Origin: Tubulanus polymorphus
Lineage: Eukaryota > Animalia > Nemertea
Direction: 5' to 3'
Assembly: GCF_964204645.1 (NCBI RefSeq)
Contig: NC_134030.1
Location: 12,359,947 to 12,423,946 of the forward strand
Length of the DNA: 64,000 nt
Every line of letters begins with the position of its first letter. The stretch's first letter is position 1. Shown piece after piece: positions 5,941-57,904 of the stretch. Under the pieces are notes generated by a model. That model saw nothing but the letters and a program-made list of their open reading frames with translations, did not search any database and was not told where the DNA came from. The position numbers and the translations under genes were made by a program.

Positions 5941-6520
5941 CACTGGGTACCACAGAACGCAAGCTGTTTAATTGTTACTGGGTACCACGGAACACAAGTT
6001 GTTTGATTGTCACTGGGTACCACGGAACACGAGTTTTTTGATTGTCACTGGGTACCACAGAACACGAGTTGTTTGATTGTCACTGGGTACCACGGAACAT
6101 ATGTTTTTTAAAAATATCTAATCACAGGGTACCACGGAACACAAGTTGTTTAATTGTCACTGGGTACCACGGAACACAAGTTGTTAATTGTCATTGGGTA
6201 CCACAGAACACAAGTTGATTAATTGTCACTGGGTACCACAGAACACAAATTGTTTAATTTTCACTGGGTACCACGGAACACATATTTGTTATTTTATATT
6301 CAATCACTGGGTACACAAGTTGTTTAATCGTCACTGGGTACCACGGAACACAAGTTGTTAATTGTCATTGGGTACCACAGAACACAAGTTGATTAATTGT
6401 CACTGGGTACCAGGGAACACATGTTAGGCCTATTTTGTATTAAATCTTGTTTGCTTGTCACTGGGTACCACAGAACACGTGTTATTTTGTATATAATCAC
6501 TGGGTACCACGGAACACATA
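5941..6520. repeat. ~35-bp minisatellite, about 14-15 units
   Basis: Consensus CACTGGGTACCACGGAACACAAGTTGTTTAATTGT with some longer variant units. Confidence 0.92.
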
Positions 6521-7495: not shown

Positions 7496-8153
7496 CTTCA
7501 TATAAAATGAATATAATGAGCGCAGATAGTACATATGAATATTGAAAATACAATTACAGTGACAAGATGGTAGCATACATAGATACATACAAAATACAGA
7601 CATTTACCTACGTACACGTACCCGTCCAGATATACATGTTACACATTAATATTGATTAGAAGTTTCACAAAACACCGGTTGGTCAAATCATAGAATTTGA
7701 TTTGAGTTCTATGGTCTAATATAGACTGATAACCCGTATACACATTTCGTCACACTGAAAATGTTTGCAAAGCTTATAAGCTTGGTCTGTTTAAGAAGTA
7801 GCCAAGAAGGTAACGTTGTCTAATTTGGTTATAAAAGTCACACTGGAAAATAAAATGATACTCGTCACCCAGTTTGTTTCTATTACATTAGGTGCAAATT
7901 CGATCTTCCCGGTTATTCTGTCATAGCGACCAATTTCGATTGGGAGCTTAAGGTTAGAGCATCTAAATTTATGGATGGGAATGAAATTTCGTGTAGATAA
8001 AAAAGAAAAATACTCGGACCCAATCTAGTTTAATATTCCTATATATCGACCATTTGAATGAATTGTTATCGGTTTGCCATTTTTGAATAAATTGAACTTG
8101 CAGTCTTGCTTAACTATTTGACCAAGGTATTTGACACTTGGGAAATTTTGATA
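7458..8153 (-). mobile_element. 3' portion of a degenerate LINE (CR1/RTE-X-like): ORF2 C-terminus, 3' UTR and tail
   Basis: Minus strand reads YQNFPSVKYLGQIVKQ/RLQVQFIQKWQTD...KFRCSNLKLPIEIGRYDR../EDRICT*CNRNKLGDEYHFIFQC (LINE C-terminal Cys/His motif), then AATAAA and an (AAACT)n-An tail at 7458-7494. Confidence 0.85.
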
Positions 8154-8383
8154 GTATAATATCCACACTGATCAGTGGTTTCTCGTTCCGCGGTTATGTA
8201 GTGATTGGGGATAAAAAACGAAACCCGGAACAAGTAGCCACATACGCTGGTTTTTTTTTTTTTTAATATCTTAACCCATCCTGTATTTCATTGGCCCATT
8301 CCCTCCACTGTACAAGGCACACCTGTCACACTCGACTCCCCATCTTCCGCAAACTAAGAAGTGACCGCGTCACTAGTGTCACA

Positions 8384-8419
8384 TGATCAGTGTGGATAGT
8401 ATAATATCCACACTGATCA
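8384..8419. other. Putative YR recombination site (B1/A2 junction), copy A
   Basis: TGATCAGTGTGGATA-GTATAA-TATCCACACTGATCA: 15-bp perfect inverted arms around a 6-bp spacer. Confidence 0.8.
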
Positions 8420-8687
8420 GTGGTTTCTCGTTCCGCGGTTATGTAGTGATTGGGGATAAAAAACGACCCAACCCCTTACTGATAACCACAACAAATACTA
8501 AACCTTTCCACAACTACACCCAAACCCCAACTATACTAGGCCGAGTGAAACGAGGCCAAAAATCAGAAGACAGAATATGCATCCGAAGTCGATTTATTTA
8601 GACCCGCCTTAGAAATCGGGTATATCAATATACAAAATTCGTATAAGCGTCTAGTTTCTTATCGATATAAATTGGCGTACGTAGAAC

Positions 8688-10025
8688 CTACATGGATGAA
8701 AACATTGGTTTAAACCCGCTTGTAGCATTATTCAGGCGATATGATTCTACACTTTTATCAGTTAACTGTCCCATAGCTTGACCGAGAGAGTCAGAGACTT
8801 TACCCTGCATCACACAAGCATGTTTGGTGTAATGCTTTGCCATGGACTGATGCTTCCAACCAATATAAGAAGTCACCTCTTTAGATGTATGGCCCAAAGA
8901 AGCCAACATAACGGAGCATCCAACCCTAAAACTATGCGGGGTCTCACCGTCATACATACAAATTTCTTTTAGGTAAGTTTTCAAACGGCTTCCCACCGCA
9001 TTCGAGTCGAGTCCGTTATTAACGATAGCGCCCTCTTTATTCGTTATCCGGAATAAGTAACCCCCTCCAAGGTCAACTCCAAGCGCCTTTACAACAGCAA
9101 AATACCTTTCAATCGCCAAAACCGGGCACAGAACCGGGTTGTTAAAACGAGTAACTACGGATGTCAAAACCGAACCATCCCGCAGTGTTTTCCCGAACGT
9201 TAGATTTAAAATGATTACCCTTCCATCGTCACTCTGAGAGATCCCATCTGTCAAAAACCGACCTAAGTCTGCCGCCCTATGTCCTGTTAGAAAATCAAGT
9301 TTGAAGAAAGCCTGGTCCCTTGCTAAAATATACTCCGTTACCGCGGGTAAATCTGGGACAGCCAAGCGTTTATCAATAGAGAGAATCATTGCCGTCAATT
9401 TGCTAAGGTACATTGGGACGGCTTGTTTAGGGGTGATCATAGCCACCGATTGCTCCTTCTTAGTCACTCTCAGGTATTGTTTTACCTCTTCTGATATGGT
9501 AGGATTCCCAGTTCCGCGCTCGGGATGCCAATAGCCAATTTTACCAATCGAGTTAAATATTGCCCTTATCTGACCCAGATAGGAATCGACCGTTCCGGCT
9601 GCCAGTCTTTTGGGGCATAAACAACCACCGGTCCTTGGTGAGGCCTTCGAGACTGCTTTCCAACCTCGTACCGGACAGGTTAAAGAGTGTACTACTGTTT
9701 TACCCCGAGCATCCCTGAATACCATGAACCTACAGATATCCCTAGGTGATGCCGTCAACAAGGATCTCGATGGGCGCAGTGACCCGAGGAACAAGACCAA
9801 ATCTTCTTCCAGTTTTGACTTCTTTCGGCCATAAACAGAGTTGCGCTCACTCTCTGACATAGATTTTAACCGGGCATCCAAATCTTTTAATGGTAAGGCT
9901 AGCAATGTACCGTTCTCGCCATCCGCCTTGCTTAACTCTGAACCACAATTGTAGCAGAAATTTGAGTGCTGTCGCGAGCGATGTCCACAGTCCGCACAAT
10001 GGTTCTCGTGATGCAGAGACAGATC
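8688..10025 (-). CDS. Tyrosine recombinase with N-terminal zinc ribbon and ALOG domain (terminal exon), copy A
   Basis: Open frame with TGHRAADL (R), GKT (K), PHSFRVG (HxxR), IGWK, AKHY (Y) and ALOG signature GKTVVH...C...CLCPKRLAAGTVDSYLGQIRAIF. Acceptor TTTTACAG|GAT. Confidence 0.9.
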   Translation of the reverse strand, partial: DLSLHHENHCADCGHRSRQHSNFCYNCGSELSKADGENGTLLALPLKDLDARLKSMSESERNSVYGRKKSKLEEDLVLFLGSLRPSRSLLTASPRDICRFMVFRDARGKTVVHSLTCPVRGWKAVSKASPRTGGCLCPKRLAAGTVDSYLGQIRAIFNSIGKIGYWHPERGTGNPTISEEVKQYLRVTKKEQSVAMITPKQAVPMYLSKLTAMILSIDKRLAVPDLPAVTEYILARDQAFFKLDFLTGHRAADLGRFLTDGISQSDDGRVIILNLTFGKTLRDGSVLTSVVTRFNNPVLCPVLAIERYFAVVKALGVDLGGGYLFRITNKEGAIVNNGLDSNAVGSRLKTYLKEICMYDGETPHSFRVGCSVMLASLGHTSKEVTSYIGWKHQSMAKHYTKHACVMQGKVSDSLGQAMGQLTDKSVESYRLNNATSGFKPMFSSM

Positions 10026-10212
10026 CTGTAAAATATGACAGATCTTAAAAGAACCATAACAAACGAGGTATATCAGAAAAGACAAAGCGTTTATTAACGT
10101 AAAAGCAGAGTTATGCATCCGGATTTTACCGTGCATAGATCAGAGTAGAAAATAAAGACCACCGTTACGCAACACCATGTTATCGCTCAGGAAAACATGT
10201 CAATTTAATCTT

Positions 10213-12386
10213 TCAATCTAATCTATCAAAATCTATCCTATAAACAAACAGATCCCACGGGATGCCTACTGTAACCTCCACAAAACCTTTTTTAGTCGGA
10301 TATTTCAAAACACCCACATCTCCCTTTTTGCCAAGCAGGCGACGTTTGGATGCATGAGAGGTTACCAAAGGCCACCAGAATGGCCTCGGAAAGATTTCTG
10401 GAATGACGATAGATGTTTCTTTGACCGCGTCTGCCAAGAATCGTAAAACCGCCGGTATCTTAGAAATTGGCGGAAACACATATGGATTAACCTCGTCGCA
10501 TAGATTTTGTGCGAACAGATCTACACCACAAGAATCAGTAGATGGCGTTGGCGTAAAATGTCGTAGTGGAGAGCCTGACAAATCTACCATTACGTTCGAA
10601 TCAAGGGCCATCAAATCAACCGAGTGTCCGTTTTCACCCCCATATTCACGTTGCACGAGCTGCCACATACGCGGAGATAACATACATTCCGATTTTCGCA
10701 AAATTCGCGAGGGAGCGTCTGCTAGATTCTCTTTTGACGGTACATAATGCAATTTCAACAACACATTTTGTTCTGCTGTTAGTTCAAACAAAAGCTTAAT
10801 TGCTTCTGACAGATCATGTGATTTGGAACCTTCACCAACCCATGCCGCAATCATAGTTTTATTATCTACAAAAGCGTCTACTCTACTGTCTCCAATTTTA
10901 TCAGAAACCACCATTAAAACGTTTTTAAGTGCCAGGGTTTATTACAATGGGTTTTTGTACCAGCTCCTGTGGCCAATAATCGGAGGGCTCAAACCTCTGC
11001 TCACCAATCGTGACTATCCCACCCCATCTAAAGAGGATGCGTCCGTGTACATCTGAATTCTGACATGCCACTCTTGGCGCCACCTTACCACCCTTGGCAA
11101 ACATTCAATTATCTTTCAGTACTCTATCTCAGTTCTGAGGTTGCCCCCAACCCTAATGAGTCTCGAGTTTCTGAATGCCTTAGAAATAGCTAAGTTTGAC
11201 TCCCTTGTATAAAGCTTCGCAGCTGGTACAACCAACGAGAAGGATATGATCTTACCCACAAACCGCTGAATGGTTTTAATGTTAACGAATTCGGACGATA
11301 AAATATTGTCCCTTAAAATGGCAAATTTTACCACCTTATCATTTGGGATCTCAAAACGTTCCTCTATAGTGTTAACAAATAAGCCTAAATGCTTTAATAA
11401 CTGACACGGTTCCAGGACGCATTTAAGGAGGCCTAGAAAATACCCTAGTCTTGTTAAAACTTGGGCCGTCATATATAGAGCTAGCCTAGCCTTTGTGATG
11501 GATTCTAAACCCCTAGCCGAGGAACTTAAAAGCTCCCCATTTAAACGGTCATCAATGTATTGAGTTATCTGTACTCCTAGGTCTCGAAGGTAACCCGTTG
11601 CAACCAAGCCAGTTTTCTGGTATATATAGGCCGAGGCCTTAAAACCAAAAGGAATAACGGTGTAAACGTAATACCAACGTTTCCAGTTGATTCCCAAATA
11701 CACCTCACTTCCCGGTGTTACCCTGATGTGGTCGTAACCACTTTTATCATCGACAGAGGTCATAAACGCGCTTTTATGTAGCATGCGAGGTACGTTTACC
11801 AAAGTTTCCAAATGGAAAGGCGAGTCCCGAATCCATAGATTTAGAAATCGTTCGTCGTGGCACATTCTGGGTTTCGTGGGTTCAACCGTCAAGGGCATAA
11901 CTAAATGCGGGGTGGATCGACCCCAACCTTTCCCCAGACCTTGAGTGATCCATTAGCCACCCGACCTTTTAATGTTGTAGAAATAAAATCTTCAAATTGT
12001 TCGCAGTTTCCAGCATTCGGGAACACCGTTTTTGGGGGCGCATCACAATCATACGTCTTGCCTTTAAACTGACCCTTAAACCTCTTAAAGAAATCTGGGA
12101 TATGAACACCATCTCGCACCCAAGATAATATCGTGTCTGACAACGGATCCTCTGACTGCCGTAGAATAAATTCCCATTCCTCCAGATGGCGACTCAGTTC
12201 ACCTGCGACGAAATTCTCCGGGTCCCTGAGGGGCAGGTCAAAAATTGTCAAATTGTTATACTTGTCCGCCGATTTCGAAACGGTCTCGGCTGAGACGACC
12301 TCAGGCAACGGTAACTGGACGGATGAACCTCTAGCACCAACCCAAAACACGGGTTTACACACAGGTATCTTCAACGGAACAAAATC
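10213..12386 (-). pseudogene. pol: Disrupted pol (RT-RNase H-methyltransferase-like), copy A
   Basis: Split over ORFs 11901-12410, 11116-11898 and 10213-10914. Motifs DDKSGYDHI, PFG, YIDD, YTDASS, VPSKENLADAPSR, VDLFAQ..PYVFPP..WWP. Same lesions as copy B. Confidence 0.88.
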
Positions 12387-12627
12387 CTGAAAAGACACAC
12401 TAAGGTCCATCAGTCCAGCCCCGTTGCCAGCACGACATAAGCCGTGACAACAGACTTAGATAGCCTGTGACAACAAAGCCAACCGATCACAAACAACCGA
12501 TAACAAAATGAATTATCCAACATATGATCAATTTAATGGAGAGAAAATAACCTTGTTTAACATCTTTAACAACACAATATAACATTACGTATCATCCAAA
12601 ACTAAATCCAATCAGGTTCTAACTCAT

Positions 12628-13170
12628 TTAGACAACCTCACTTTCAGTCTTCGTTACCACTTGTGGTTGCTTATTCTCAGGACAGTCGCGAACAAAATGA
12701 CCCTCTTTGCGGCATAAGAAACAATTCCCCCTAGAACTTCTCCCTGCTCTCCTTGTACCGTAACCTCGGCGCCCAACATATCCCCTGCCTACACCCGACC
12801 CACCCCAATAGCCGTAAGTTGGGTAATAATTGTTTGTGTGCGGCTTTTTAGCCCATTTTGCCTCCACTGATGCCACTTTTTCATCATCCGGGGAGCCAAT
12901 CAAACGCCTACACAAAGCAGGTAAGTCTGGAGAATCGATATTTCTCTTGATACTTTTCAGCACAGAATCAAAATACCCTTTTTTCGGATCTGTGGTTTCA
13001 GCTGCCACCTCTACCAAGCCTTCCATACAACCGAGAAGGAAGTATGGATCAAAGAAAGAGCCCGGCCTTTGAAGCGCTGCCCTCACCTGCATCAGAGCGC
13101 TCTCTACTGAACGAGCTGGATGTGTAACCTTCTTCTCGAGTTCCTCCAGACGCTCTAACAATTTTTTGTC
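12628..13170 (-). CDS. gag: gag-like nucleocapsid exon, copy A
   Basis: Zinc knuckle CFLCRKEGHFVRDC preceded by an RG-rich tract. Acceptor TTTCAG|GAC. Confidence 0.82.
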   Translation of the reverse strand, partial: DKKLLERLEELEKKVTHPARSVESALMQVRAALQRPGSFFDPYFLLGCMEGLVEVAAETTDPKKGYFDSVLKSIKRNIDSPDLPALCRRLIGSPDDEKVASVEAKWAKKPHTNNYYPTYGYWGGSGVGRGYVGRRGYGTRRAGRSSRGNCFLCRKEGHFVRDCPENKQPQVVTKTESEVV

Positions 13171-13651
13171 CTGAAACACACGAGATAAATACAAATATAG
13201 ACTAATCAGCATGACTTCGCAGTAAATAGTTTAAAAGATCGCCATGATTTCGGTTAACGAACATACAATCTATAGTCAAATCTATCATCCTAAATGTTTC
13301 ATGCTTCTGCTTCATACCATTACCTACATCTTAATGGGTTATCTTTACATTCCATCTTGCATCTTACATTTTCAGAAGCTGTCTTTTAAAAAACCTAATC
13401 TCTATGAACTTTCTCCTCCAGTAAAGGAAACGAAAAATCCTCTAACATAACCAAAACAGATCCCCATTCTGTACCCACTAAATCCTGGTATGTGCAAAGG
13501 CCCAGAGCAATAAACCTTAAACGCACAGAGCTACACATGTTTTTAAACAAATGTCTATTAATTTCCCAATAAATCTACCCAGTCCAGGCCTACCGACCAA
13601 GCCCGGGGGCTACAAATACAGATATAAAACTGAGAAAATAAAAACACTCAC

Positions 13652-14044
13652 CGGTTCAGAAACCCCATCTGGGGTTACCGCATCACTCTCCGCACCGACC
13701 GTGCTTGTACTAGGTGCGGGCACAGACTTCCTTTTTTTTGGTACCTGAGGGAGCTTGTTCGCGTTCTCGTTAGCGAAAATTATCAAGTGGTGCGCTAGCA
13801 GCGGACCTTCCGTCTCCTCCCAGTCCACCAGCGTTAACAGATCACTCATCTTTTTACCAGTCAGTGAAAATACCGCATCATCCACATACTTCCTCGGTGC
13901 CGCTTCTAGTGGCTTAAGCCTTTCGAACCTAGCTAAGGCTGTAGGCCGATCTAGGTTCAGATCTAACCCTCTTAATCTCAATAACATGGGGATGATGTCC
14001 ACCGTTTTCAAACCGTCTGACGATTTTAAAACCACCGGTTCCAT
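13652..14044 (-). CDS. Shared 131-aa N-terminal coding exon of the YR retrotransposon, copy A
   Basis: TTTCAG|AG-ATG acceptor and start, CCG|GTGAGT phase-0 donor, PKKRK motif. Confidence 0.72.
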
Positions 14045-14734
14045 CTCTGAAACAGATATGCGAAAAGAACATCAAAATTACTACCGCATCGTACCAGGAA
14101 TAAAATTTAAAAGTATTAGCAAACTGATCCTAACAACCGTCGACAAAGTTTAACCAAATATATACATGTGACCAGACCAGAAAAACGTTAAATTTTCGGC
14201 CACATGCCGAAATTATTTCTCTAGCCACCATCTTAAATTAAACAAGAACTAATACGACAGTAATACACTAATAAAAACTCACCTTAAATCCTCTGTACGA
14301 TACACAGTCAAACAAGTCTAATAATACCACCGAGCTCCAAAACTGTCCTCAAATCTGAAAAGCGATTTGACTAACAGGACTTGATGCTAACCCAACACTA
14401 CCGCTAACTACAAAACGAGACCAAGGACTAGGTAAAACGTCACCAGATTGCCTTTACACGCCCAGTAAGATTAAACCGAATTTTGAAAAGCCAATGAAAT
14501 CCCACAAAAGAATTCCAAATCCAGACCTTGGAAATGCGCCTATGAATGAAATAAATCTAGCAAAATGCACGCACTGTGACTTACAGTATTTACCCACGTC
14601 CCAATAAAGGCAAAAGCAATCACGCATGTAGCACTGTAACCTAAATGTCATTGACGGTCAAAATGTACCAAAGTACCCTAGTACTTCTAACCTGACCGAG
14701 AATTTTGCCTCAATAAAATCACTATCAATCCATC

Positions 14735-15075
14735 TCCCGTGCTTCATCCAAAATACTGCACTTATCCCAGAAAATCTAAAAGACCATCTGCCCGTGCTTA
14801 AACCCAAAATCACGGTACCGTATAACCCAAAACATCAAAATCAGTGTTTCATCCGAAATGACTGCACCAAAATTAACAAACCTAGTGCTTCATCCTAAAT
14901 TACTGCACTAAAACTAACAAAACCAGTGTTTCATCCGAAATGACTGCACCAAAAATAAATAAAAACCAGTGTTTCATCCGAAATGACTACACTAAAATCA
15001 ATAAACTCCAGTGTTTCATCCAAAATGACTGCACTAAAACTAATAAACCCAGTGTTTCATCCAAGATGACTACAC
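14735..15075. repeat. ~38-bp tandem array in the element 5' region, copy A
   Basis: Repeated CCAGTGTTTCATCCGAAATGACTGCAC..AAA units. Confidence 0.85.
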
Positions 15076-15949
15076 CAAAGTCTCCAAACCAGGCAAAAGG
15101 GGACGAAAACTAAAGAGGAAACCACAAACAAAATTCCAAAGAAAAATACCAAATGCTACCGGAAAGGAACCACAGAAAATCGGCAAACGCAGGAGACAAA
15201 ACTCACCACAAAACAGCTGACCACACACGTCCGATAGCTTCGAAAGCAAACTAAGAAGTGACCGCGTCACTAGTGTCACATGATCAGTGTGGATAGTATA
15301 CACTACTATAGTGATACTGTAACGCTGCTTGCTGGTGCGTTTGACATTTCATCAGCAGAAGATGAGCGCTGTATCTTCTGTTTGATAGAATTTGTAATAA
15401 ATTGTAATTTCTTGTGACCTGAAAATACTAAGCAGCAAATTTAATCGTCGCGATCGGGCGAAAAAATACGCTCAACCTTTAGCCGAACTATCGAAAAGAA
15501 GTTACCGTTCTGCGTACGAATTCGGTCGCTACGTTCCTATTTACGTTGGAACTCACACTCGTCCGTTGAATGAGCAGAACAGGGCAATCGATGTTCATTC
15601 AATAACCATGCCGGCCATGCCGGCCATGCAAACAAAAGACAGCCTACCGTCTACGGATGGAAGACGCGCCACGCCTTCGATGTCGTCGACGATTAATTAA
15701 AAGTTGAATTTCAATCGACGAGATAAATCCAATTGGGTTCTCCACCATGCTGTATTGATCTCCTCTCTCTTTTGCTTCGGATTCCGTGGATCGAGTGGAT
15801 TAAAAAACCCTAAGAGGACAAACGATTAACTTCGATTTAACATATCTTTATTTTTCCATCTCAAATACGCTTCTCTATGGCATCAACGCTCCCTCTACAA
15901 AATCACGTGACACTTACGTCACACAATCAATATTACTATATAACATTTT

Positions 15950-18606
15950 CTACGCTGAAAGGTTTGAGGCTGAGGACTTCTTTAACGAATCCAATGTAGA
16001 TATTTCTAATTTGAAAGCAGATATTCGTCTCAACAAAGAAAATGCGTTAATTATTGGGGTTATCGCCTGACTGATTTCTGCAAAACTCACGGGTTACTTA
16101 TTGCAAATGGCAGAATTTGGTAAGGATAGAGGTGTGGGTGCTTATACATGTCTTAAACGGAATAGCCAGCGCGTCATAGATTGTCTCGTCCCACATCCTA
16201 AAGTGTGCCGAGTTCGAATTCAAAGAGTTTAACCATATGTTTTCGGATGTGCACTACCCAATTAAGTGTATTCTAAATACATTGGACCGTATCGAGTGTA
16301 ATGTTCCCCCTCGTTTTAACAATAAAAGGAATAAAGAGAAGTTAAAGTGGAATCCCGTGAACCAGGCAATTTGAGAATCTTTTCCTCAAAAATTTTAGAT
16401 GATATGATATCAGATATATCACTGAATAAAATTTACTGTAACGTTGCGAATGAACGGTTATGTGAACACTTGGTCGAAGCAACTGAAGCGTCAATGGGTA
16501 GGTTTAAAATCAACAACAAGGGTCAAGAAGTACACAAAGCAAGGACTCGGTATTCTATAATGCAAATGTAAAACTGAATCAGAGAAACTTTAGAAGAGCG
16601 AAACGACGCTATCGATTTAGCAAAACTAATACTAATCGTATAAATGTTAATGATGCCTCTAAAGAGTATTAAGGATCTCTGAAACGCAGGAAGCTAGAAC
16701 AGGCAAAATTACATAACAAGACTCTGAGATCAATGGAAAATAGGTACCCAAAATATTATTTCTAAATATTTCAAAATACCGAGTTGTTCTGCCTGTAAAG
16801 CTTCTCTGGAAGATCTCTTCCACCATTTTAGTCACCTAAATGACAATATAGATGAGAGTTGTTCAGTAGAACAAAATATATCTAATGTAGAAACTTCGTT
16901 GATAACCTATTTGTCGATGACTTGAATAAGGATATAAACGGAAGCGAAAACCCCCTGAACCAGAACCAAGCGGGCTTCCGGAAGAAGCGTAGTATCAGAA
17001 CTGTATAGTATCAACGAGCATATTTCTTATTAAAACAATTGTGGACCTTTTCTTGAAAGACAATAGAAAGTTGTACTGTGAATTTATTGATTATATTAAG
17101 GCATTCGACACTGTATGGAGGAGAACAATGTATAGCAATATAAGAGCTGTAGTTGAAGTTAAGGAGGTTAATTCAGAATCTTTCCAAAATAATCTTGGTT
17201 TAAGACAAGGAGAAAATTTATCGCCGGTGCTCTTCTACATATGCGTCGATGACCTCGACGAATACATGTATTAAAATAGTTGCTCATCTATCAATTTCCC
17301 TGTAAGGCCACACCAAAAGAAAACCCTGTTTCTCGGGCCCGACCGACCCGATATTTCCCCATTTCAAATAATCATTTTCAGAATAAAATATCCGCCTACT
17401 GACCCTTTTTCAAAATTTTAGGTGAATAAACTTTTTTCAAAAATATATATGTGGCCGACCGACTACCAAACTCCTTTCTCGTAAATATTTTTTTACCAAA
17501 TCATGATGTCGGCACTGAGATCAACATCAATAACATTTTATTATATCGGATTTAAAATTTGATTCTGGAAATGGCGCAGCCATGCTCAGACAACTTTGCT
17601 AATCGGACTTTGATGGCGACTTTGGAGTGTAAAATTCCTGGAATTCCGTGAAATATGTTCAAAATATAGTTTTTTTTATAGTTAATTGTACAAACACCTC
17701 AATTTCCTTTTATTATTGTGGTCTACTAGCTGTTAATCATATTCCTGACTAAAAATTTAGTTCAGTAAAAATTATTTACGGCAACCTACCCACTGATAGA
17801 AGAATAAACGATATTTTTTTTCTATAAAAAGAAAAAAAAATGTCCTACCTACCTACCCATTTTGGTGATTGCCCTGCCCGAGAAATAGGATTTTCTTTTG
17901 GTGTGGCCTAAATGATATGTGGCTCCGGCTCTTAGCATTATTGTATGCAGACGATACTATCTTGATAGCTGAAAGTGTAGCTAATCTGCAGCAGATGCGT
18001 GATGTAACGGCTAGTTATTGTAAATTGTGGAAACTAATTATCATTACCGATAAAACGAAAGAAGCTCAAAGCGTTACCCAACTTTTTACATAGACGGAAA
18101 TGAAATAAAAAACTAAAGATTTTCGATACCTAGGGATAATATTTAACTACACTGGGTCGTTTAGTAAGCGTAAGGAAAGTATTTGTGAACATGCCAAGGA
18201 AAGACTATTTATGAACTTAAAAAGGTGAAAGAACAGTTACTGGAACTGGATGTAGCTCCTAGGTCATTTGACTCTATGTTTGCACCAATTCTAACATTTT
18301 GGGCTTAGGTTTGGGTTTTCGAGGATGTACAATGTATTGAAATAGTCCATCTCCTTTTTTGCAAGTGTATACTCAAACTCAAGCTGTCAACTCCAAATGG
18401 TATGATAAGGTCGTTTCCCTCTTGAAATAATAATCAAGATCAGGTTAATAAATTCTGGGGCAATCTAGTCTCAAGACAAGAGACGGTTTTTTTGTTAAAC
18501 TGTATCAAGTTTTATCAAATAACATTAAATAAAATTTTATTAGGTAATGTGAATTCCAAATGGATGACTTTTGCCAAATCTATTGCGGCTTTGGTGAATT
18601 CTGGTT
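15950..18606 (+). mobile_element. 5'/central portion of a degenerate LINE (APE endonuclease end and RT), interrupted by a MITE and by the YR element
   Basis: Fragments ANGRI/GKDRGVGAYTCL...VIDC, FSDVH, NQAGFRKKRS, FIDYIKAFDTVWR, GLRQGENLSPVLF, LYADDT, FRYLGIIF, ending CGFGEFWF at the copy B junction. 5' boundary approximate. Confidence 0.85.
17306..17908. mobile_element. PIF/Harbinger-type MITE inserted in the LINE RT
   Basis: 32-bp TIRs GGCCACACCAAAAGAAAA(C/T)CCT(G/A)TTTCTCGGG with 2 mismatches. TAA duplicated at 17303-17305 and 17909-17911. Removing it restores INFPVNDMWLRLLALLYADD. Confidence 0.92.
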
Positions 18607-18829
18607 CTATCCACACTGATCATGTGACACTAGTGACGCGGTCACTTCTTAGTTTGCTTTCGAAGCTATCGGACGTGTGTGGTCAGCTGTTTTGTGGTGA
18701 GTTTTGTCTCCTGCGTTTGCCGATTTTCTGTGGTTCCTTTCCGGTAGCATTTGGTATTTTTCTTTGGAATTTTGTTTGTGGTTTCCTCTTTAGTTTTCGT
18801 CCCCTTTTGCCTGGTTTGGAGACTTTGGT

Positions 18830-19170
18830 GTAGTCATCTTGGATGAAACACTGGGTTTATTAGTTTTAGTGCAGTCATTTTGGATGAAACACTGGAGTTT
18901 ATTGATTTTAGTGTAGTCATTTCGGATGAAACACTGGTTTTTATTTATTTTTGGTGCAGTCATTTCGGATGAAACACTGGTTTTGTTAGTTTTAGTGCAG
19001 TAATTTAGGATGAAGCACTAGGTTTGTTAATTTTGGTGCAGTCATTTCGGATGAAACACTGATTTTGATGTTTTGGGTTATACGGTACCGTGATTTTGGG
19101 TTTAAGCACGGGCAGATGGTCTTTTAGATTTTCTGGGATAAGTGCAGTATTTTGGATGAAGCACGGGAGA
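18830..19170. repeat. ~38-bp tandem array in the element 5' region, copy B
   Basis: About 8 units of GTGCAGTCATTT(C/T)GGATGAAACACTGG + T-rich linker, degenerating towards the 3' end. Confidence 0.85.
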
Positions 19171-19548
19171 TGGATTGATAGTGATTTTATTGAGGCAAAA
19201 TTCTCGGTCAGGTTAGAAGTACTAGGGTACTTTGGTACATTTTGACCGTCAATGACATTTAGGTTACAGTGCTACATGCGTGATTGCTTTTGCCTTTATT
19301 GGGACGTGGGTAAATACTGTAAGTCACAGTGCGTGCATTTTGCTAGATTTATTTCATTCATAGGCGCATTTCCAAGGTCTGGATTTGGAATTCTTTTGTG
19401 GGATTTCATTGGCTTTTCAAAATTCGGTTTAATCTTACTGGGCGTGTAAAGGCAATCTGGTGACGTTTTACCTAGTCCTTGGTCTCGTTTTGTAGTTAGC
19501 GGTAGTGTTGGGTTAGCATCAAGTCCTGTTAGTCAAATCGCTTTTCAG

Positions 19549-19620
19549 ATTTGAGGACAGTTTTGGAGCTCGGTGGTATTATTAGACTTGTTTGACTGTG
19601 TATCGTACAGAGGATTTAAG
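19549..19620 (+). other. Predicted non-coding 5' exon of the element transcript
   Basis: Acceptor CTTTTCAG| at 19548 and donor AAG|GTGAGT at 19620/19621. A further GTG|GTGAGT donor lies upstream at 18696/18697. Confidence 0.5.
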
Positions 19621-19858
19621 GTGAGTTTTTATTAGTGTATTACTGTCGTATTAGTTCTTGTTTAATTTAAGATGGTGGCTAGAGAAATAATTTCGGCATG
19701 TGGCCGAAAATTTAACGTTTTTCTGGTCTGGTCACATGTATATATTTGGTTAAACTTTGTCGACGGTTGTTAGGATCAGTTTGCTAATACTTTTAAATTT
19801 TATTCCTGGTACGATGCGGTAGTAATTTTGATGTTCTTTTCGCATATCTGTTTCAGAG

Positions 19859-20251
19859 ATGGAACCGGTGGTTTTAAAATCGTCAGACGGTTTGAAAACG
19901 GTGGACATCATCCCCATGTTATTGAGATTAAGAGGGTTAGATCTGAACCTAGATCGGCCTACAGCCTTAGCTAGGTTCGAAAGGCTTAAGCCACTAGAAG
20001 CGGCACCGAGGAAGTATGTGGATGATGCGGTATTTTCACTGACTGGTAAAAAGATGAGTGATCTGTTAACGCTGGTGGACTGGGAGGAGACGGAAGGTCC
20101 GCTGCTAGCGCACCACTTGATAATTTTCGCTAACGAGAACGCGAACAAGCTCCCTCAGGTACCAAAAAAAAGGAAGTCTGTGCCCGCACCTAGTACAAGC
20201 ACGGTCGGTGCGGAGAGTGATGCGGTAACCCCAGATGGGGTTTCTGAACCG
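19859..20251 (+). CDS. Shared 131-aa N-terminal coding exon, copy B
   Basis: Acceptor TTTCAG| at 19856, ATG at 19859, donor CCG|GTGAGT at 20251/20252 (393 nt, phase 0). Confidence 0.72.
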
Positions 20252-20732
20252 GTGAGTGTTTTTATTTTCTCAGTTTTATATCTGTATTTGTAGCCCCCGG
20301 GCTTGGTCGGTAGGCCTGGACTGGGTAGATTTATTGGGAAATTAATAGACATTTGTTTAAAAACATGTGTAGCTCTGTGCGTTTAAGGTTTATTGCTCTG
20401 GGCCTTTGCACATACCAGGATTTAGTGGGTACAGAATGGGGATCTGTTTTGGTTATGTTAGAGGATTTTTCGTTTCCTTTACTGGAGGAGAAAGTTCATA
20501 GAGATTAGGTTTTTTAAAAGACAGCTTCTGAAAATGTAAGATGCAAGATGGAATGTAAAGATAACCCATTAAGATGTAGGTAATGGTATGAAGCAGAAGC
20601 ATGAAACATTTAGGATGATAGATTTGACTATAGATTGTATGTTCGTTAACCGAAATCATGGCGATCTTTTAAACTATTTACTGCGAAGTCATGCTGATTA
20701 GTCTATATTTGTATTTATCTCGTGTGTTTCAG

Positions 20733-21275
20733 GACAAAAAATTGTTAGAGCGTCTGGAGGAACTCGAGAAGAAGGTTACACATCCAGCTCGTTCAGTAGA
20801 GAGCGCTCTGATGCAGGTGAGGGCAGCGCTTCAAAGGCCGGGCTCTTTCTTTGATCCATACTTCCTTCTCGGTTGTATGGAAGGCTTGGTAGAGGTGGCA
20901 GCTGAAACCACAGATCCGAAAAAAGGGTATTTTGATTCTGTGCTGAAAAGTATCAAGAGAAATATCGATTCTCCAGACTTACCTGCTTTGTGTAGGCGTT
21001 TGATTGGCTCCCCGGATGATGAAAAAGTGGCATCAGTGGAGGCAAAATGGGCTAAAAAGCCGCACACAAACAATTATTACCCAACTTACGGCTATTGGGG
21101 TGGGTCGGGTGTAGGCAGGGGATATGTTGGGCGCCGAGGTTACGGTACAAGGAGAGCAGGGAGAAGTTCTAGGGGGAATTGTTTCTTATGCCGCAAAGAG
21201 GGTCATTTTGTTCGCGACTGTCCTGAGAATAAGCAACCACAAGTGGTAACGAAGACTGAAAGTGAGGTTGTCTAA
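20733..21275 (+). CDS. gag: gag-like exon (spliced product 311 aa), copy B
   Basis: TTTCAG|GAC phase-0 acceptor, RG-rich region, CCHC knuckle. Confidence 0.82.
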   Translation, partial: DKKLLERLEELEKKVTHPARSVESALMQVRAALQRPGSFFDPYFLLGCMEGLVEVAAETTDPKKGYFDSVLKSIKRNIDSPDLPALCRRLIGSPDDEKVASVEAKWAKKPHTNNYYPTYGYWGGSGVGRGYVGRRGYGTRRAGRSSRGNCFLCRKEGHFVRDCPENKQPQVVTKTESEVV

Positions 21276-21516
21276 ATGAGTTAGAACCTGATTGGATTTA
21301 GTTTTGGATGATACGTAATGTTATATTGTGTTGTTAAAGATGTTAAACAAGGTTATTTTCTCTCCATTAAATTGATCATATGTTGGATAATTCATTTTGT
21401 TATCGGTTGTTTGTGATCGGTTGGCTTTGTTGTCACAGGCTATCTAAGTCTGTTGTCACGGCTTATGTCGTGCTGGCAACGGGGCTGGACTGATGGACCT
21501 TAGTGTGTCTTTTCAG

Positions 21517-23690
21517 GATTTTGTTCCGTTGAAGATACCTGTGTGTAAACCCGTGTTTTGGGTTGGTGCTAGAGGTTCATCCGTCCAGTTACCGTTGCCT
21601 GAGGTCGTCTCAGCCGAGACCGTTTCGAAATCGGCGGACAAGTATAACAATTTGACAATTTTTGACCTGCCCCTCAGGGACCCGGAGAATTTCGTCGCAG
21701 GTGAACTGAGTCGCCATCTGGAGGAATGGGAATTTATTCTACGGCAGTCAGAGGATCCGTTGTCAGACACGATATTATCTTGGGTGCGAGATGGTGTTCA
21801 TATCCCAGATTTCTTTAAGAGGTTTAAGGGTCAGTTTAAAGGCAAGACGTATGATTGTGATGCGCCCCCAAAAACGGTGTTCCCGAATGCTGGAAACTGC
21901 GAACAATTTGAAGATTTTATTTCTACAACATTAAAAGGTCGGGTGGCTAATGGATCACTCAAGGTCTGGGGAAAGGTTGGGGTCGATCCACCCCGCATTT
22001 AGTTATGCCCTTGACGGTTGAACCCACGAAACCCAGAATGTGCCACGACGAACGATTTCTAAATCTATGGATTCGGGACTCGCCTTTCCATTTGGAAACT
22101 TTGGTAAACGTACCTCGCATGCTACATAAAAGCGCGTTTATGACCTCTGTCGATGATAAAAGTGGTTACGACCACATCAGGGTAACACCGGGAAGTGAGG
22201 TGTATTTGGGAATCAACTGGAAACGTTGGTATTACGTTTACACCGTTATTCCTTTTGGTTTTAAGGCCTCGGCCTATATATACCAGAAAACTGGCTTGGT
22301 TGCAACGGGTTACCTTCGAGACCTAGGAGTACAGATAACTCAATACATTGATGACCGTTTAAATGGGGAGCTTTTAAGTTCCTCGGCTAGGGGTTTAGAA
22401 TCCATCACAAAGGCTAGGCTAGCTCTATATATGACGGCCCAAGTTTTAACAAGACTAGGGTATTTTCTAGGCCTCCTTAAATGCGTCCTGGAACCGTGTC
22501 AGTTATTAAAGCATTTAGGCTTATTTGTTAACACTATAGAGGAACGTTTTGAGATCCCAAATGATAAGGTGGTAAAATTTGCCATTTTAAGGGACAATAT
22601 TTTATCGTCCGAATTCGTTAACATTAAAACCATTCAGCGGTTTGTGGGTAAGATCATATCCTTCTCGTTGGTTGTACCAGCTGCGAAGCTTTATACAAGG
22701 GAGTCAAACTTAGCTATTTCTAAGGCATTCAGAAACTCGAGACTCATTAGGGTTGGGGGCAACCTCAGAACTGAGATAGAGTACTGAAAGATAATTGAAT
22801 GTTTGCCAAGGGTGGTAAGGTGGCGCCAAGAGTGGCATGTCAGAATTCAGATGTACACGGACGCATCCTCTTTAGATGGGGTGGGATAGTCACGATTGGT
22901 GAGCAGAGGTTTGAGCCCTCCGATTATTGGCCACAGGAGCTGGTACAAAAACCCATTGTAATAAACCCTGGCACTTAAAAACGTTTTAATGGTGGTTTCT
23001 GATAAAATTGGAGACAGTAGAGTAGACGCTTTTGTAGATAATAAAACTATGATTGCGGCATGGGTTGGTGAAGGTTCCAAATCACATGATCTGTCAGAAG
23101 CAATTAAGCTTTTGTTTGAACTAACAGCAGAACAAAATGTGTTGTTGAAATTGCATTATGTACCGTCAAAAGAGAATCTAGCAGACGCTCCCTCGCGAAT
23201 TTTGCGAAAATCGGAATGTATGTTATCTCCGCGTATGTGGCAGCTCGTGCAACGTGAATATGGGGGTGAAAACGGACACTCGGTTGATTTGATGGCCCTT
23301 GATTCGAACGTAATGGTAGATTTGTCAGGCTCTCCACTACGACATTTTACGCCAACGCCATCTACTGATTCTTGTGGTGTAGATCTGTTCGCACAAAATC
23401 TATGCGACGAGGTTAATCCATATGTGTTTCCGCCAATTTCTAAGATACCGGCGGTTTTACGATTCTTGGCAGACGCGGTCAAAGAAACATCTATCGTCAT
23501 TCCAGAAATCTTTCCGAGGCCATTCTGGTGGCCTTTGGTAACCTCTCATGCATCCAAACGTCGCCTGCTTGGCAAAAAGGGAGATGTGGGTGTTTTGAAA
23601 TATCCGACTAAAAAAGGTTTTGTGGAGGTTACAGTAGGCATCCCGTGGGATCTGTTTGTTTATAGGATAGATTTTGATAGATTAGATTGA
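21517..23690 (+). pseudogene. pol: Disrupted pol (RT-RNase H-methyltransferase-like), copy B
   Basis: TTTTCAG|GAT phase-0 acceptor. Frameshifts near 21993, 22872 and 22964; in-frame TGA at 22785-22787. Confidence 0.88.
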
Positions 23691-23877
23691 AAGATTAAAT
23701 TGACATGTTTTCCTGAGCGATAACATGGTGTTGCGTAACGGTGGTCTTTATTTTCTACTCTGATCTATGCACGGTAAAATCCGGATGCATAACTCTGCTT
23801 TTACGTTAATAAACGCTTTGTCTTTTCTGATATACCTCGTTTGTTATGGTTCTTTTAAGATCTGTCATATTTTACAG

Positions 23878-25215
23878 GATCTGTCTCTGCATCACGAGAA
23901 CCATTGTGCGGACTGTGGACATCGCTCGCGACAGCACTCAAATTTCTGCTACAATTGTGGTTCAGAGTTAAGCAAGGCGGATGGCGAGAACGGTACATTG
24001 CTAGCCTTACCATTAAAAGATTTGGATGCCCGGTTAAAATCTATGTCAGAGAGTGAGCGCAACTCTGTTTATGGCCGAAAGAAGTCAAAACTGGAAGAAG
24101 ATTTGGTCTTGTTCCTCGGGTCACTGCGCCCATCAAGATCCTTGTTGACGGCATCACCTAGGGATATCTGTAGGTTCATGGTATTCAGGGATGCTCGGGG
24201 TAAAACAGTAGTACACTCTTTAACCTGTCCGGTACGAGGTTGGAAAGCAGTCTCGAAGGCCTCACCAAGGACCGGTGGTTGTTTATGCCCCAAAAGACTG
24301 GCAGCCGGAACGGTCGATTCCTATCTGGGTCAGATAAGGGCAATATTTAACTCGATTGGTAAAATTGGCTGTTGGCATCCCGAGCGCGGAACTGGGAATC
24401 CTACCATATCAGAAGAGGTAAAACAATACCTGAGAGTGACTAAGAAGGAGCAATCGGTGGCTATGATCACCCCTAAACAAGCCGTCCCAATGTACCTTAG
24501 CAAATTGACGGCAATGATTCTCTCTATTGATAAACGCTTGGCTGTCCCAGATTTACCCGCGGTAACGGAGTATATTTTAGCAAGGGACCAGGCTTTCTTC
24601 AAACTTGATTTTCTAACAGGACATAGGGCGGCAGACTTAGGTCGGTTTTTGACAGATGGGATCTCTCAGAGTGACGATGGAAGGGTAATCATTTTAAATC
24701 TAACGTTCGGGAAAACACTGCGGGATGGTTCGGTTTTGACATCCGTAGTTACTCGTTTTAACAACCCGGTTCTGTGCCCGGTTTTGGCGATTGAAAGGTA
24801 TTTTGCTGTTGTAAAGGCGCTTGGAGTTGACCTTGGAGGGGGTTACTTATTCCGGATAACGAATAAAGAGGGCGCTATCGTTAATAACGGACTCGACTCG
24901 AATGCGGTGGGAAGCCGTTTGAAAACTTACCTAAAAGAAATTTGTATGTATGACGGTGAGACCCCGCATAGTTTTAGGGTTGGATGCTCCGTTATGTTGG
25001 CTTCTTTGGGCCATACATCTAAAGAGGTGACTTCTTATATTGGTTGGAAGCATCAGTCCATGGCAAAGCATTACACCAAACATGCTTGTGTGATGCAGGG
25101 TAAAGTCTCTGACTCTCTCGGTCAAGCTATGGGACAGTTAACTGATAAAAGTGTAGAATCATATCGCCTGAATAATGCTACAAGCGGGTTTAAACCAATG
25201 TTTTCATCCATGTAG
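23878..25215 (+). CDS. ALOG-domain tyrosine recombinase exon (spliced product 576 aa), copy B
   Basis: TTTTACAG|GAT phase-0 acceptor; CxxC...CxxC ribbon, ALOG motif and complete R-K-HxxR-W-Y catalytic set. Confidence 0.9.
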   Translation, partial: DLSLHHENHCADCGHRSRQHSNFCYNCGSELSKADGENGTLLALPLKDLDARLKSMSESERNSVYGRKKSKLEEDLVLFLGSLRPSRSLLTASPRDICRFMVFRDARGKTVVHSLTCPVRGWKAVSKASPRTGGCLCPKRLAAGTVDSYLGQIRAIFNSIGKIGCWHPERGTGNPTISEEVKQYLRVTKKEQSVAMITPKQAVPMYLSKLTAMILSIDKRLAVPDLPAVTEYILARDQAFFKLDFLTGHRAADLGRFLTDGISQSDDGRVIILNLTFGKTLRDGSVLTSVVTRFNNPVLCPVLAIERYFAVVKALGVDLGGGYLFRITNKEGAIVNNGLDSNAVGSRLKTYLKEICMYDGETPHSFRVGCSVMLASLGHTSKEVTSYIGWKHQSMAKHYTKHACVMQGKVSDSLGQAMGQLTDKSVESYRLNNATSGFKPMFSSM

Positions 25216-25483
25216 GTTCTACGTACGCCAATTTATATCGATAAGAAACTAGACGCTTATACGAATTTTGTATATTAATATACCCGATTTCTAAGGCGGG
25301 TCTAAATAAATCGACTTCGGATGCATATTCTGTCTTCTGATTTTTGGCCTCGTTTCACTCGGCCTAGTATAGTTGGGGTTTGGGTGTAGTTGTGGAAAGG
25401 TTTAGTATTTGTTGTGGTTATCAGTAAGGGGTTGGGTCGTTTTTTATCCCCAATCACTACATAACCGCGGAACGAGAAACCAC

Positions 25484-25519
25484 TGATCAGTGTGGATATT
25501 ATACTATCCACACTGATCA
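25484..25519. other. Putative YR recombination site (B1/A2 junction), copy B
   Basis: TGATCAGTGTGGATA-TTATAC-TATCCACACTGATCA. Confidence 0.8.
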
Positions 25520-26340
25520 TGTGACACTAGTGACGTGGTCACTTCTTAGTTTGCGGAAGATGGGGAGTCGAGTGTGACAGGTGTGCCTTGTACAGTGGAG
25601 GGAATGGGCCAATGAAATACAGGATGGGTTAAGATATTAAAAAAAAAAAAACCAGCGTATGTGGCTACTTGTTCCGGGTTTCGTTTTTTATCCCCAATCA
25701 CTACATAACCGCGGAACGAGAAACCACTGATCAGTGTGGATATTATACTGTACGCGCGTGTGTTTGTGTGTGCAACAGTCTAATAATCTAATGATTTCCG
25801 CGCGCACGTGGAGGCCTTGTGTAAGTGGATGTTCGCTTACACTTCAATGTCAATCGATTCAATCACCCGGTATTAAAATGAAACAATACCTATGGCGGAT
25901 AATAATTATATTCATACCAGTAATGAGCATTTGAAATTCGCACGTATACGGCACCTAGTCTAATGAAACGTTCGCCATTCTATGGCTTTCCCATAATTAT
26001 TTTAGTAGCGCCGGAATTCCCCGTATATCACAAAAACAGCCAATCACATTAGCTCGTAGAGACAACGCCCCCAATCGAAGTCATTGCAATTTTATACGCG
26101 AGAGCTAAGAATTTTCCCGCCAAAAACAGTTTTTCGTAGAATTTTTACAATGTTGACCATGTCATCGACGGAGGTTCGCCATGTCTTCAATCGCATCGAT
26201 TATACGTCGTTTACGCCGAGAACCAATGAAACAAATGCCCACATATAAAAACGTACCGCGATTTTACATGAATTGGCTCAATGCCAACTTCATATTGCTG
26301 ACAAGGGTAACTCCAAAAATCGCACGTGGAAAATCGCTAC

Positions 26341-26470
26341 TATCCTTGATGACGTGAGTTGATCTTTCACGTCATGACATTATCCTTCACGTAATGAGTT
26401 TATCCTTCACATTATGAGTTGATCCTTCACGTTATGAGATTATCCATCACGTTATGGGTTTATCCTTCAC
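26341..26470. repeat. 20-bp minisatellite, about 6 units
   Basis: (T/G)ATCCTTCACGTTATGAGTT-like units. Confidence 0.8.
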
Positions 26471-28599
26471 ATGGTGACTAGAGTGTCTGTTTGGCGGGGA
26501 TGGCCGCCCGTAGAAGCTCACAAATTCTTCAAATTTGAGGCCAGTGCCGGTTACTGACGAAACAAAGTTTATCGACTGACATGATTTTCAATAATTTCAC
26601 GATAGGACTGCTTTATGTAGCTTGCATCTTCACTCAGACAAATCGTTGTTACGCGCCACCTACACCCTGGCGCGCGTACTCTATAACTGATACGTAAAAC
26701 ACGCAGCGAATACGAGACTATGAGGCGATATTGCCTACGCGACTGTACACGACTGTTTTCAACGTGAACGCTCCACTGGGCCCTAGTTAACAATCTAATA
26801 CAAATAATCAGGCTCCAAAACGGATCGCTGATGCGAACGTTAATGAAATAACTTCAATTAATGGTGATAACACGAGTATTCCAGTATAAAATCAAATATC
26901 AGACTCATCTCTAAAAATTCGATTCTATCAGTAAATCAGCCGTGTGGCGAACAGCAGAAGTAAATTTCTGCATTTTGAAACCATATTTTCGTCAGATATA
27001 TTGATGCGACGTTAACTTACGCACGGGATATCAAAACTAGATGAATCATTGAACACTCGCACCCAATAAATCGTTATATCATACGCCTTGAATATCAGTA
27101 TTCGCGCTAGAAAGGATGAATATCAACCTATTCAATCATGCCGCCATTTTGTTTGTGAAATGACGCCCACCAGCTGATCCACCTCATTCAATGTTATGAC
27201 GTCATGATGGAAGTCAAAACCGGGTCAACACAAATTATACATAACCGAGATTTTGGGGGATTTTGTCTTCGAAAGCCCATAGCTAACGAAGATAGCGTCG
27301 GATCTTGGCGATATAAGGTTCTTCCGACGCAAATAGCATTGAATTTTCACATGTGTTATTTTGGGCAGTTAAAGATGCTGCATAAAAAACGTGCTCAAAT
27401 AAATCGAATTTTTGAAACTTGTTGGTAAATTTCTCAAAAACTATGAAACCCACGGCTTTCAACTTTGCGCACTATAAAGAAAAATCTATTACGAAATATA
27501 TTTTTGCTTAATCCGTTCAATTCGCCCATTAGTAGTGAAATTACAGGCTACTGAAATTGCCTTTGAGAGTGCTAAAAATAGCGTAGTGTATTAAGCATGC
27601 GAATGATGATCGATCGGCCAGACCGTTGACAAAAATTGGCGCCTGGAAACTGTAAAAAGGCTTATTCAATTCAGTTTACATGTATAAGTTAACACATTAT
27701 CCAACAAACTTTACCGATATCTGGGTAGAAGAATTAACGGATTTCATATTTGGTAGGTCCCCTGCGATAATATATGCATTCGTGAGTCTAAAAATCCAGT
27801 TCAAAGTTAATTGAAAATGAACTAATTTTGACAACGAACAACCTACTGCTCGCCACGCCCTGGTGGGATAGCTGGTTTTGCGGGTACCCCATTACAAGGT
27901 ATGACTTTCTAAAATTCTAGATTATTCACATTTTTGGTTTCATCAATTTAAATTAAAGCCTTTCACCTCCCGTTATCTCACCAATTGATATCCTGTATTT
28001 CTTACACACTAGGCATTTTCCCGGAGGTGCCATCATTTCTTTGTGAAAATGATTGTCTTGCATTTCGTTGTATCAATGAATGACGTCGGCAGCAGGTACG
28101 CGAACTTATTACACGAGTTCACGATATCAGCGATGCCTGTTCTTCGATTTCCTCCGAGTTCTTCGATTAGACCTGAAAATGAAACCCTTTGTTTCGTTCA
28201 CGGTAGGTCGGGTGTGGTGGTACGTAGGCGTGTAAGGGATACAGAATTCATATATAAAATAATTGACCGATCAAATGAATGAGAGAGAATATTCCCTATT
28301 TCCAGACGAAATAAAAATTAATGGCATTTAATGTTATCTAGTTTTTCAGGGCATTCTATTCTTTAATTGAAAAAAATTCGTTTGAACGTAAAAAACCATT
28401 TGAATACGGTACGCGTGCCAGTGGTTATTTTGATGAAAAAAGCAGGATTGATGCACAGAGGATGGACACTACGCCATATAAATTCACATTGAAGAAACAC
28501 CGTTCAGGTATGGATAGGTTTCAACTATTGAAAAATACATAAAAAATTAAAGTTTTCATGTATTCCATTTGACCCAATGGTACATGTTACTCACACTTA

Positions 28600-44645: not shown

Positions 44646-57904
<13,259 letters not shown>

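Follow-up and report, generated by a model that had tools for sequence, protein, structure and literature searches.

Organization of the element

The stretch of DNA analyzed here, hereafter the window, comprises 64,000 nucleotides (nt) of contig NC_134030.1 from the nemertean Tubulanus polymorphus and contains a tyrosine-recombinase (YR) retrotransposon whose 7.1-kb body (18607-25749; copy B) carries split direct repeats, A1, B1-A2 and B2 (Table 1). Within this body lie two non-coding exons, a coding leader exon and three open reading frames (ORFs) for Gag, Pol and the recombinase, which do not overlap one another, as an earlier note made from the sequence alone had claimed. That note also described a further copy (copy A) that mirrors these sites. 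We found this to be correct; copy A, which is inverted, differs from copy B at only 4 of 7045 positions and is therefore a near-identical twin that provides no independent support for the splice sites.

The earlier note had placed an exon with an ATG and a phase-0 donor at 19857-20251. This stands, with the refinement that the exon begins at 19857, directly after its own acceptor (TTTCAG), and that the ATG lies two bases on, at 19859. From there to 20251 the exon spans 393 nt, or 131 codons, and ends in phase 0 at CCG/GTGAGT (the slash marks the splice site). Three acceptors follow, each in phase 0 with the ORF downstream of it, as previously read: TTTCAG/GAC at 20733 ahead of gag, TTTTCAG/GAT at 21517 ahead of pol, and TTTTACAG/GAT at 23878 ahead of the YR ORF. 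The predicted lengths of leader-Gag (131 + 180 = 311 amino acids) and leader-YR (131 + 445 = 576 amino acids) were reproduced, and the pol span of ~724 codons would be added to the 131 leader codons. The two upstream non-coding exons and the split direct repeats are additions to the earlier description.

The Gag ORF matches zf-CCHC in Pfam (E 3e-5), and the YR exon matches ALOG_dom (E 2.7e-19), DZR (E 5e-4) and Phage_integrase (E 4.9e-8) and retains the catalytic pattern R..K..HxxR..W..Y. Pol contains RVT_1 followed, after RNase H, by a conserved C-terminal region of ~160 residues with an NPYVFPP motif. This methylase-like end gave no sequence match in Pfam, PHROG or PDB; the better structural matches of a low-confidence model (pLDDT 54) include methyltransferases (a cap-specific adenosine methyltransferase at E 0.06; Z about 4 in another search). 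The pol frame of the window copy is broken in three places, by frame changes at ~21990-22000 and ~22872 and by a stop at 22785-22787; contigs of other copies differ from the window at the latter two breaks.

Table 1 Features of the retrotransposon in the window
Feature	Position	Strand	Remarks
Split direct repeat A1	18607..18657	+	5' end of copy B; repeat family D9
Non-coding exon 1	18607..18696	+	5' bound nominal; donor GTG/GTGAGT; X4 joint 18696>19496
Tandem repeat array within intron 1	18824..19060	+	41-42-nt units; repeat family D7
Non-coding exon 2	19496..19620	+	donor AAG/GTGAGT; X4 joint 19620>19857
Coding leader exon, proposed to be shared	19857..20251	+	ATG 19859; 131 codons; phase-0 donor CCG/GTGAGT
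Intron before gag	20252..20732	+	skipped by GT..AG joint in X4
gag exon	20733..21275	+	180 codons; CCHC zinc knuckle
Candidate poly(A) hexamer ATTAAA, gag-pol spacer	21366..21371	+	motif only
Predicted pol exon	21517..23690	+	N-terminal region, reverse transcriptase (RT), RNase H, degenerate methylase-like domain; ~724 codons
Candidate poly(A) hexamer AATAAA, pol-YR spacer	23808..23813	+	motif only; ATTAAA also at 23694
Predicted YR exon	23878..25215	+	zinc ribbon, ALOG domain, tyrosine recombinase; 445 codons
Repeat B1	25437..25505	+	repeat family D10
Repeat A2	25504..25554	+	repeat family D9
Repeat B2	25681..25749	+	3' end of copy B; repeat family D10
Copy A, inverted twin of copy B	8153..15296	-	identical sites and identical pol breaks

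Splicing of the leader exon to gag

The contigs of four runs were compared with the window. Runs X1 to X3, of which X2 and X3 are one sample, behave as DNA: none of their three joints falls at a splice site, and the contigs continue through the introns. Run X4 behaves as RNA, and all three of its joints are of the GT..AG type at consensus donors (18696>19496, 19620>19857 and 20251>20733), the first of them being weak with a short side of 29 letters. The joint 20251>20733 demonstrates that the leader is spliced to gag, and the two upstream joints make the leader the third exon, after two non-coding exons. Consistent with this, the RefSeq protein P0002 (Tubulanus polymorphus, two accessions) equals leader plus Gag with 0 mismatches, and P0001 shows 6 mismatches. 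The simple acceptor score ranked both the gag site at 20733 and the YR site at 23878 at the top.

On these data and on those described below, we consider it highly probable that the start-codon exon 19857-20251 is spliced to gag and likely also to pol (21517) and to the recombinase (23878), with an intron-retaining RNA as the template; the leader>pol and leader>YR joints are likely, on indirect support.

Structure prediction of leader-Gag yielded a confident three-helix unit at residues 51-95 followed by a disordered linker. The predicted Gag core begins at residue 132, which is exactly at the splice junction, at the end of the linker and just ahead of the first Gag helix. A Pfam search of the leader found no family, and Foldseek with the leader-Gag model returned nothing at E<=0.001; in a second fold search the best hits (Z up to 7.9) were helical bundles matching the gag part only. 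The two-copy prediction of the leader scored 0.00. A further phase-0 acceptor-like site, TTGTCACAG, lies at 21439 and is followed by a stop two codons later; its use would yield a leader-only peptide. RefSeq also holds a 135-aa leader-only model, P0003, with a different ending.

The transcript-like pol contig of X4 (21552-23821) runs through the pol breaks of the window copy without difference or gap, and the copy transcribed in X4 therefore appears to be one with a defective pol. Stretches left uncovered by X4 (~21233-21551 and 23822-23872) and the end of the pol contig at 23821, 13 nt past the AATAAA at 23808, were not counted as evidence, nor were depths, because contigs cannot show ends or absence.

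Conservation of the splice sites among relatives

An RT-based scan identified 31 loci, of which 18 are at least 3 kb long. The YR analysis covered these 18, the 13 shorter loci being left out; 12 have a usable YR 5' end and 6 do not. All 12 carry a pyrimidine tract and an in-frame YAG immediately ahead of the conserved YR start. In nine of them this YAG is TAG, an in-frame stop, so that no upstream ATG is usable for YR. The simple acceptor score chose the phase-0 site in 11 of the 12 loci and favoured an AG 14 nt upstream in L001. The 12 relatives fall into seven nucleotide groups, with a YR identity of mostly 33-46% between the groups compared, and the site is in phase 0 in every group; the chance of this is (1/3)^7 = 5e-4, and among control anchors within the coding frames of pol, 22/104 were in phase 0.

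The gag acceptor is in phase 0 in 5/5 loci, and a phase-0 GT ends each of the five upstream leader ORFs scanned as well as that of L021. Homology to the window or oyster leaders is seen for the leaders of L006 and L021, the remainder being short ORFs rich in Pro/Ala. Hence the conservation that the earlier note had asked about holds for YR (12/12) and gag (5/5), the pol acceptor being noisier (8/15 clear, see below). No relative turned up in a scan of viral contigs.

Some of these loci have features of their own. L006, which also has a methylase-like pol end, carries an ORF for an SGNH/GDSL hydrolase after YR (8571-9227). In L021 an intron-like gap of ~1 kb interrupts the leader homologue (1541-2887), and this locus gave no match to gag. 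In L015 the YR matches (5546-6226) lie on the strand opposite to pol, which may reflect an arrangement as in Kangaroo-type elements or a rearrangement.

Leader homologues in mollusc proteins

A 50%-cluster search with the leader gave eight matches at E<=0.001, of which two repeat-rich ones (P0114, P0118) were disregarded. Aligned over 135 columns, the leader and the N-terminus of the Magallana gigas YR model P0050 share 32% identity (E 6e-14), and a profile built from three such N-termini retrieved 31 proteins. Within one oyster family the same N-terminus is found on Gag (P0117, P0092), on YR (P0050, P0087-P0091) and on Pol (P0094), the sequences diverging at the same residue. A switch at one common residue is also seen within each of the pairs P0099/P0101 (Gag/Pol), P0098/P0044 (Gag/YR) and Mytilus P0096/P0097 (Gag/YR). 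P0101 is an ORF on an 1818-nt Logan contig, and the point at which it switches to Pol matches the genomic pol acceptor in L021 to the exact codon.

In the oyster proteins Gag continues past the junction with V-K or V-R, which can be encoded as GTN-AR; the oyster donor thus probably lies inside an uninterrupted gag. The leader would then be the front of Gag, at which the window element has an additional intron.

The Mytilus models P0073, P0097, P0103, P0106 and P0107 run leader-YR-gag(-pol), which suggests a relative with YR ahead of gag. Leader homologues also form the N-terminus of host-like Mytilus proteins (P0104, P0105, P0108-P0113), several with STAND NTPase/ankyrin domains, and one ends the integrin-like Magallana model P0093. 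Either exon capture or the origin of the leader is a possible explanation.

Alternative starts and joints

Several observations weigh against a leader shared by all three proteins. X4 is a single run whose library type is not on record as RNA. The earlier note had proposed one donor with three alternative acceptors: its junction 20251>20733 is present in X4 and agrees with the exact match of P0002, and 20251>21517 and 20251>23878 are absent among the three joints listed for that run. Because contigs drop rarer branches, this silence neither supports nor refutes the latter two. The only YR contig of X4 is attached to 474 non-window letters instead of the leader. Two ATGs (23767, 23788) lie in the YR frame of the window ahead of the acceptor, the first Met inside the YR exon is at codon 56, just ahead of the ALOG match, and two of the 12 relatives (L023, L024) have an open upstream frame containing Met. 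For pol, 21517 is outside the top three AGs upstream of the window ORF by the crude acceptor score, and a first automatic pass put the acceptor in phase 0 in 4/9 relatives, the top AG of the window being another site. Since the anchors of that pass lay downstream of frameshifts in decayed copies, the analysis was redone as a three-frame view, in which, by eye, 8 of 15 loci were clear and 2 negative, with 5 ambiguous. Two of the five gag anchors derive from ORF starts and are partly circular; the short leaders of L001, L008, L009 and L010 were selected by eye, the L008 donor being weak; and the RefSeq, GenBank and Logan proteins are predictions.

If pol and YR were translated from ATGs of their own (21493, 23767) on RNAs that are unspliced or start internally, with the leader on gag only, their acceptors would be chance resemblances. 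The in-frame ATGs of the window copy, the fact that leader>gag alone is found among the three joints of X4, and the modest score of the window pol acceptor fit such an arrangement, which we nevertheless regard as very improbable. In X1, X2 and X3 the commonest contigs have the ATG at 21493 out of frame, because a 2-nt loss at 21503 lies between it and the acceptor (the loss is carried by a contig depth of 264.9/499.9 in X1, 149.5/149.5 in X2 and 48.7/48.7 in X3), and no in-frame Met occurs in the 161 codons after 21517. For YR, the in-frame TAG directly before the conserved region in 9/12 relatives, the phase 0 kept in 7/7 groups versus 22/104 controls, and the bivalve records of leader-YR and leader-Pol all argue against it. 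The own starts that the earlier note had named as a refutation are thus excluded for YR in nine relatives and out of frame for pol in the commonest contigs of three runs; in the window copy the pol ATG is in frame, and a YR start at 23767 or 23788 is possible.

The YR contig of X4 bears on a second alternative. Its match to the element breaks off at 23873, five letters short of the predicted acceptor, and 474 letters of foreign sequence follow; even when up to 6 errors are allowed, the foreign 30-mer at this loose end has no match in the window. Since five letters (TACAG) common to both sides place the boundary at 23878, the contig suggests that the YR acceptor is functional, here with a foreign exon, and the 474 letters are likely a host exon spliced onto it. 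The pol and YR acceptors could accordingly be real and yet be served by non-coding 5' or host exons, translation beginning at a downstream Met and the leader peptide not being shared. The strong donors on the non-coding exons (18696 and 19620), the junction of this sole YR contig to foreign sequence at the acceptor, and the position of the first YR Met at codon 56, just ahead of the ALOG match, would suit this explanation. It does not, however, account for the persistence of phase 0 across groups, it would lose the conserved zinc ribbon and ~160 conserved pol residues, and the coding leader itself is joined to YR and Pol in the bivalve records; we therefore judge it improbable.

The pol acceptor test is the weakest of the three, and one may ask whether only gag and YR are joined to the leader, with pol made by reinitiation or readthrough on the gag mRNA or through a second donor inside gag, where donor-like sites occur at 20816 and 21261. 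One mollusc model, P0081, indeed runs leader-gag-pol-YR in a single protein. Against this, P0094 and P0101 join the leader to Pol at the residue used by YR or in register with the genomic acceptor, and an in-frame TAG stands ahead of pol in seven loci (L002, L005, L007, L010, L014, L015 and L020), which leaves this arrangement very unlikely.

Proposed expression mechanism

In the model with a leader common to all three proteins, one transcript would begin near A1. The intron-retaining form would keep A1 and B1-A2-B2 and serve as the copying template, as expected from the presence of introns in the genomic copies and from the published split-repeat model (PMC6681497; here and below, literature statements refer to the portions of the cited papers that were available). 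Spliced RNAs would join the leader to one of the three acceptors, each protein being made from its own mRNA, and competition among the acceptors would set the Gag:Pol:YR ratio instead of the overlapping frames known from other DIRS-order elements. The minimal role of the leader would be to supply the AUG, and in one group of relatives it may be merely a short Pro/Ala-rich peptide; in the window element and in molluscs it would also add a small helical domain that was historically the N-terminal part of Gag.

A broader version, to which we assign about even chances, holds that the genomic RNA codes for no mobility protein and that Gag, Pol and the recombinase are alternative 3'-terminal exons on one coding leader throughout a widespread animal YR clade. 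Each terminal exon would then possibly have a separate poly(A) site, located upstream of the B1-A2-B2 repeats, such that the mRNAs could not be copied and the intron-retaining RNA could. Poly(A) hexamers in the spacers (9/12 on the sense strand, 7/12 on the opposite strand; shuffle odds 0.02-0.69) weakly suggest a poly(A) site for each ORF. If true, this modular design would explain the shuffled ORF order of the Mytilus models (leader-YR-gag-pol) and would explain intact metazoan copies that have been misread as dead.

A retroelement that needs splicing for every protein and yet carries introns in the RNA that is copied is unusual. It implies that intron retention, export and packaging are controlled as they are in complex retroviruses, a solution arrived at independently. 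How ORF2 and ORF3 of DIRS-order elements are translated is unsettled in the literature covered, where overlapping ORFs and no splicing appear; a shared coding exon with three acceptors would offer a concrete mechanism. ORF-based annotation misreads such elements. Because in-frame TAG acceptors resemble nonsense mutations and the leader exon is overlooked, their activity is probably underestimated. The splice sites may also let the leader or the YR exon join host genes, as the leader homologues that start Mytilus STAND/ankyrin proteins illustrate.

Copies, repeats and flanks

Copies A and B are arranged head to head (8153-25749) around a 3.3-kb spacer (15297-18606). A loose end of X1 at 25744 links the left flank of copy A to the right flank of copy B; the spacer is therefore probably flipped relative to the original insertions, through recombination between the copies or through assembly. 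The right flank of copy B (25744-25900) is a very high-copy repeat with a depth of 16,578 in X1. The flanks have a short TATACT/CT overlap in common with the element ends and with the B1/A2 junction, and there is no evident target duplication. Tandem arrays also occupy the long 5' intron of relatives (L001:1862-2739, L008:3023-3648, L010:622-1701), with units of 26-58 nt when the window array is included. Other tandem repeats or minisatellites of the window, at 2252-2514, 5920-6538, 26341-26480 and 46311-46513, are unrelated.

Comparison with known systems

The element has the RT/RNase H and tyrosine recombinase of the DIRS order, with no DDE integrase or protease family among its Pfam matches; the RT_RNaseH match is weak in relatives. 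The zinc ribbon, ALOG domain and recombinase in a single ORF are those of ALOG-containing DIRS1-type elements, and the split direct repeats A1..B1 A2..B2 together with a CCHC zinc finger in Gag correspond to the Pat1 form of PAT-like elements. We therefore lean towards an ALOG-bearing tyrosine-recombinase retrotransposon with split direct repeats that is most like the PAT-like group; the YR tree of relatives contained no reference elements. DIRS-like elements in the strict sense, with inverted terminal repeats and an internal complementary region, were considered and rejected, the ends being direct, split repeats.

ALOG DIRS1-type retroposons have been described from marine animals and Ectocarpus (Iyer & Aravind 2012, PMC3537659). 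Like the window element, they combine a zinc-knuckle Gag, RT plus RNase H, an adenine methylase that is inactive (perhaps matched by the methylase-like pol end of the window element), as well as an N-terminal zinc ribbon, ALOG domain and catalytic YR; the metazoan copies are regarded as inactive ORFs with stops. The available text of that paper contains neither 'splic', 'intron' nor 'exon', and no shared leader exon. PAT-like elements occur in molluscs and cnidarians (Szitenberg et al. 2014, PMC4157794; Piednoel et al. 2011, PMC3266345). The echinoderm form of Pat1 shares the A1..B1-A2..B2 repeats, the Gag zinc finger and the YR orientation, and its MT domain may have a counterpart in the methylase-like pol end of the window element; spliced expression is not described in the portions covered, and the ORFs of the window element are non-overlapping and likely without usable starts. 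Ngaro-like elements have A1..B1-A2-B2 repeats and the order gag/pol/YR (PMC9210276, PMC3783388, PMC8547959), and the SGNH hydrolase ORF of amphibian Ngaro elements recurs in L006. In the same sources Ngaro lacks an MT domain and splicing goes unmentioned, whereas the window element has an apparently methylase-like pol end, which speaks weakly against a Ngaro-like assignment.

Natural splicing of DIRS, Ngaro or VIPER elements is not mentioned in the available portions of PMC6681497, PMC7192593, PMC3783388, PMC8547959 and PMC9210276, nor in those of PMC12477816, PMC13465315, PMC5890265 and PMC9341512. Like the earlier note, which knew of no description for this group, our literature search found no account of a shared leader exon; its coverage did not extend to Poulter & Butler 2015, Goodwin & Poulter 2001/2004 or Repbase, which may mention introns. 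The window element thus represents a new expression strategy within a known kind of element, with one joint observed directly and two supported indirectly.

The closest parallels in expression come from other groups. Foamy viruses make Pol from its own spliced mRNA rather than as a Gag-Pol fusion, with competing acceptors after one donor (PMC5294762), as is proposed here for pol; no such pol joint is among the three listed for X4. Foamy gag is translated from unspliced RNA and the major donor lies in the R region of the long terminal repeat (PMC5294762), whereas here Gag needs splicing and the shared exon is coding. In plant Ty1/Copia elements, splicing and early termination produce shGAG and set the ratio of structural to catalytic products, a single spliced subgenomic RNA serving Gag (Oberlin et al. 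2017, PMC5580714). In the window element, by contrast, all three ORFs appear to lie behind acceptors. The Copia enzymes reportedly come from full-length RNA. The adenovirus major late unit joins a multi-exon non-coding 5' leader to alternative 3' bodies in an unrelated DNA virus without reverse transcription. It serves as an analogy only for the combination of one leader with alternative 3' bodies, possibly with poly(A) sites of their own.

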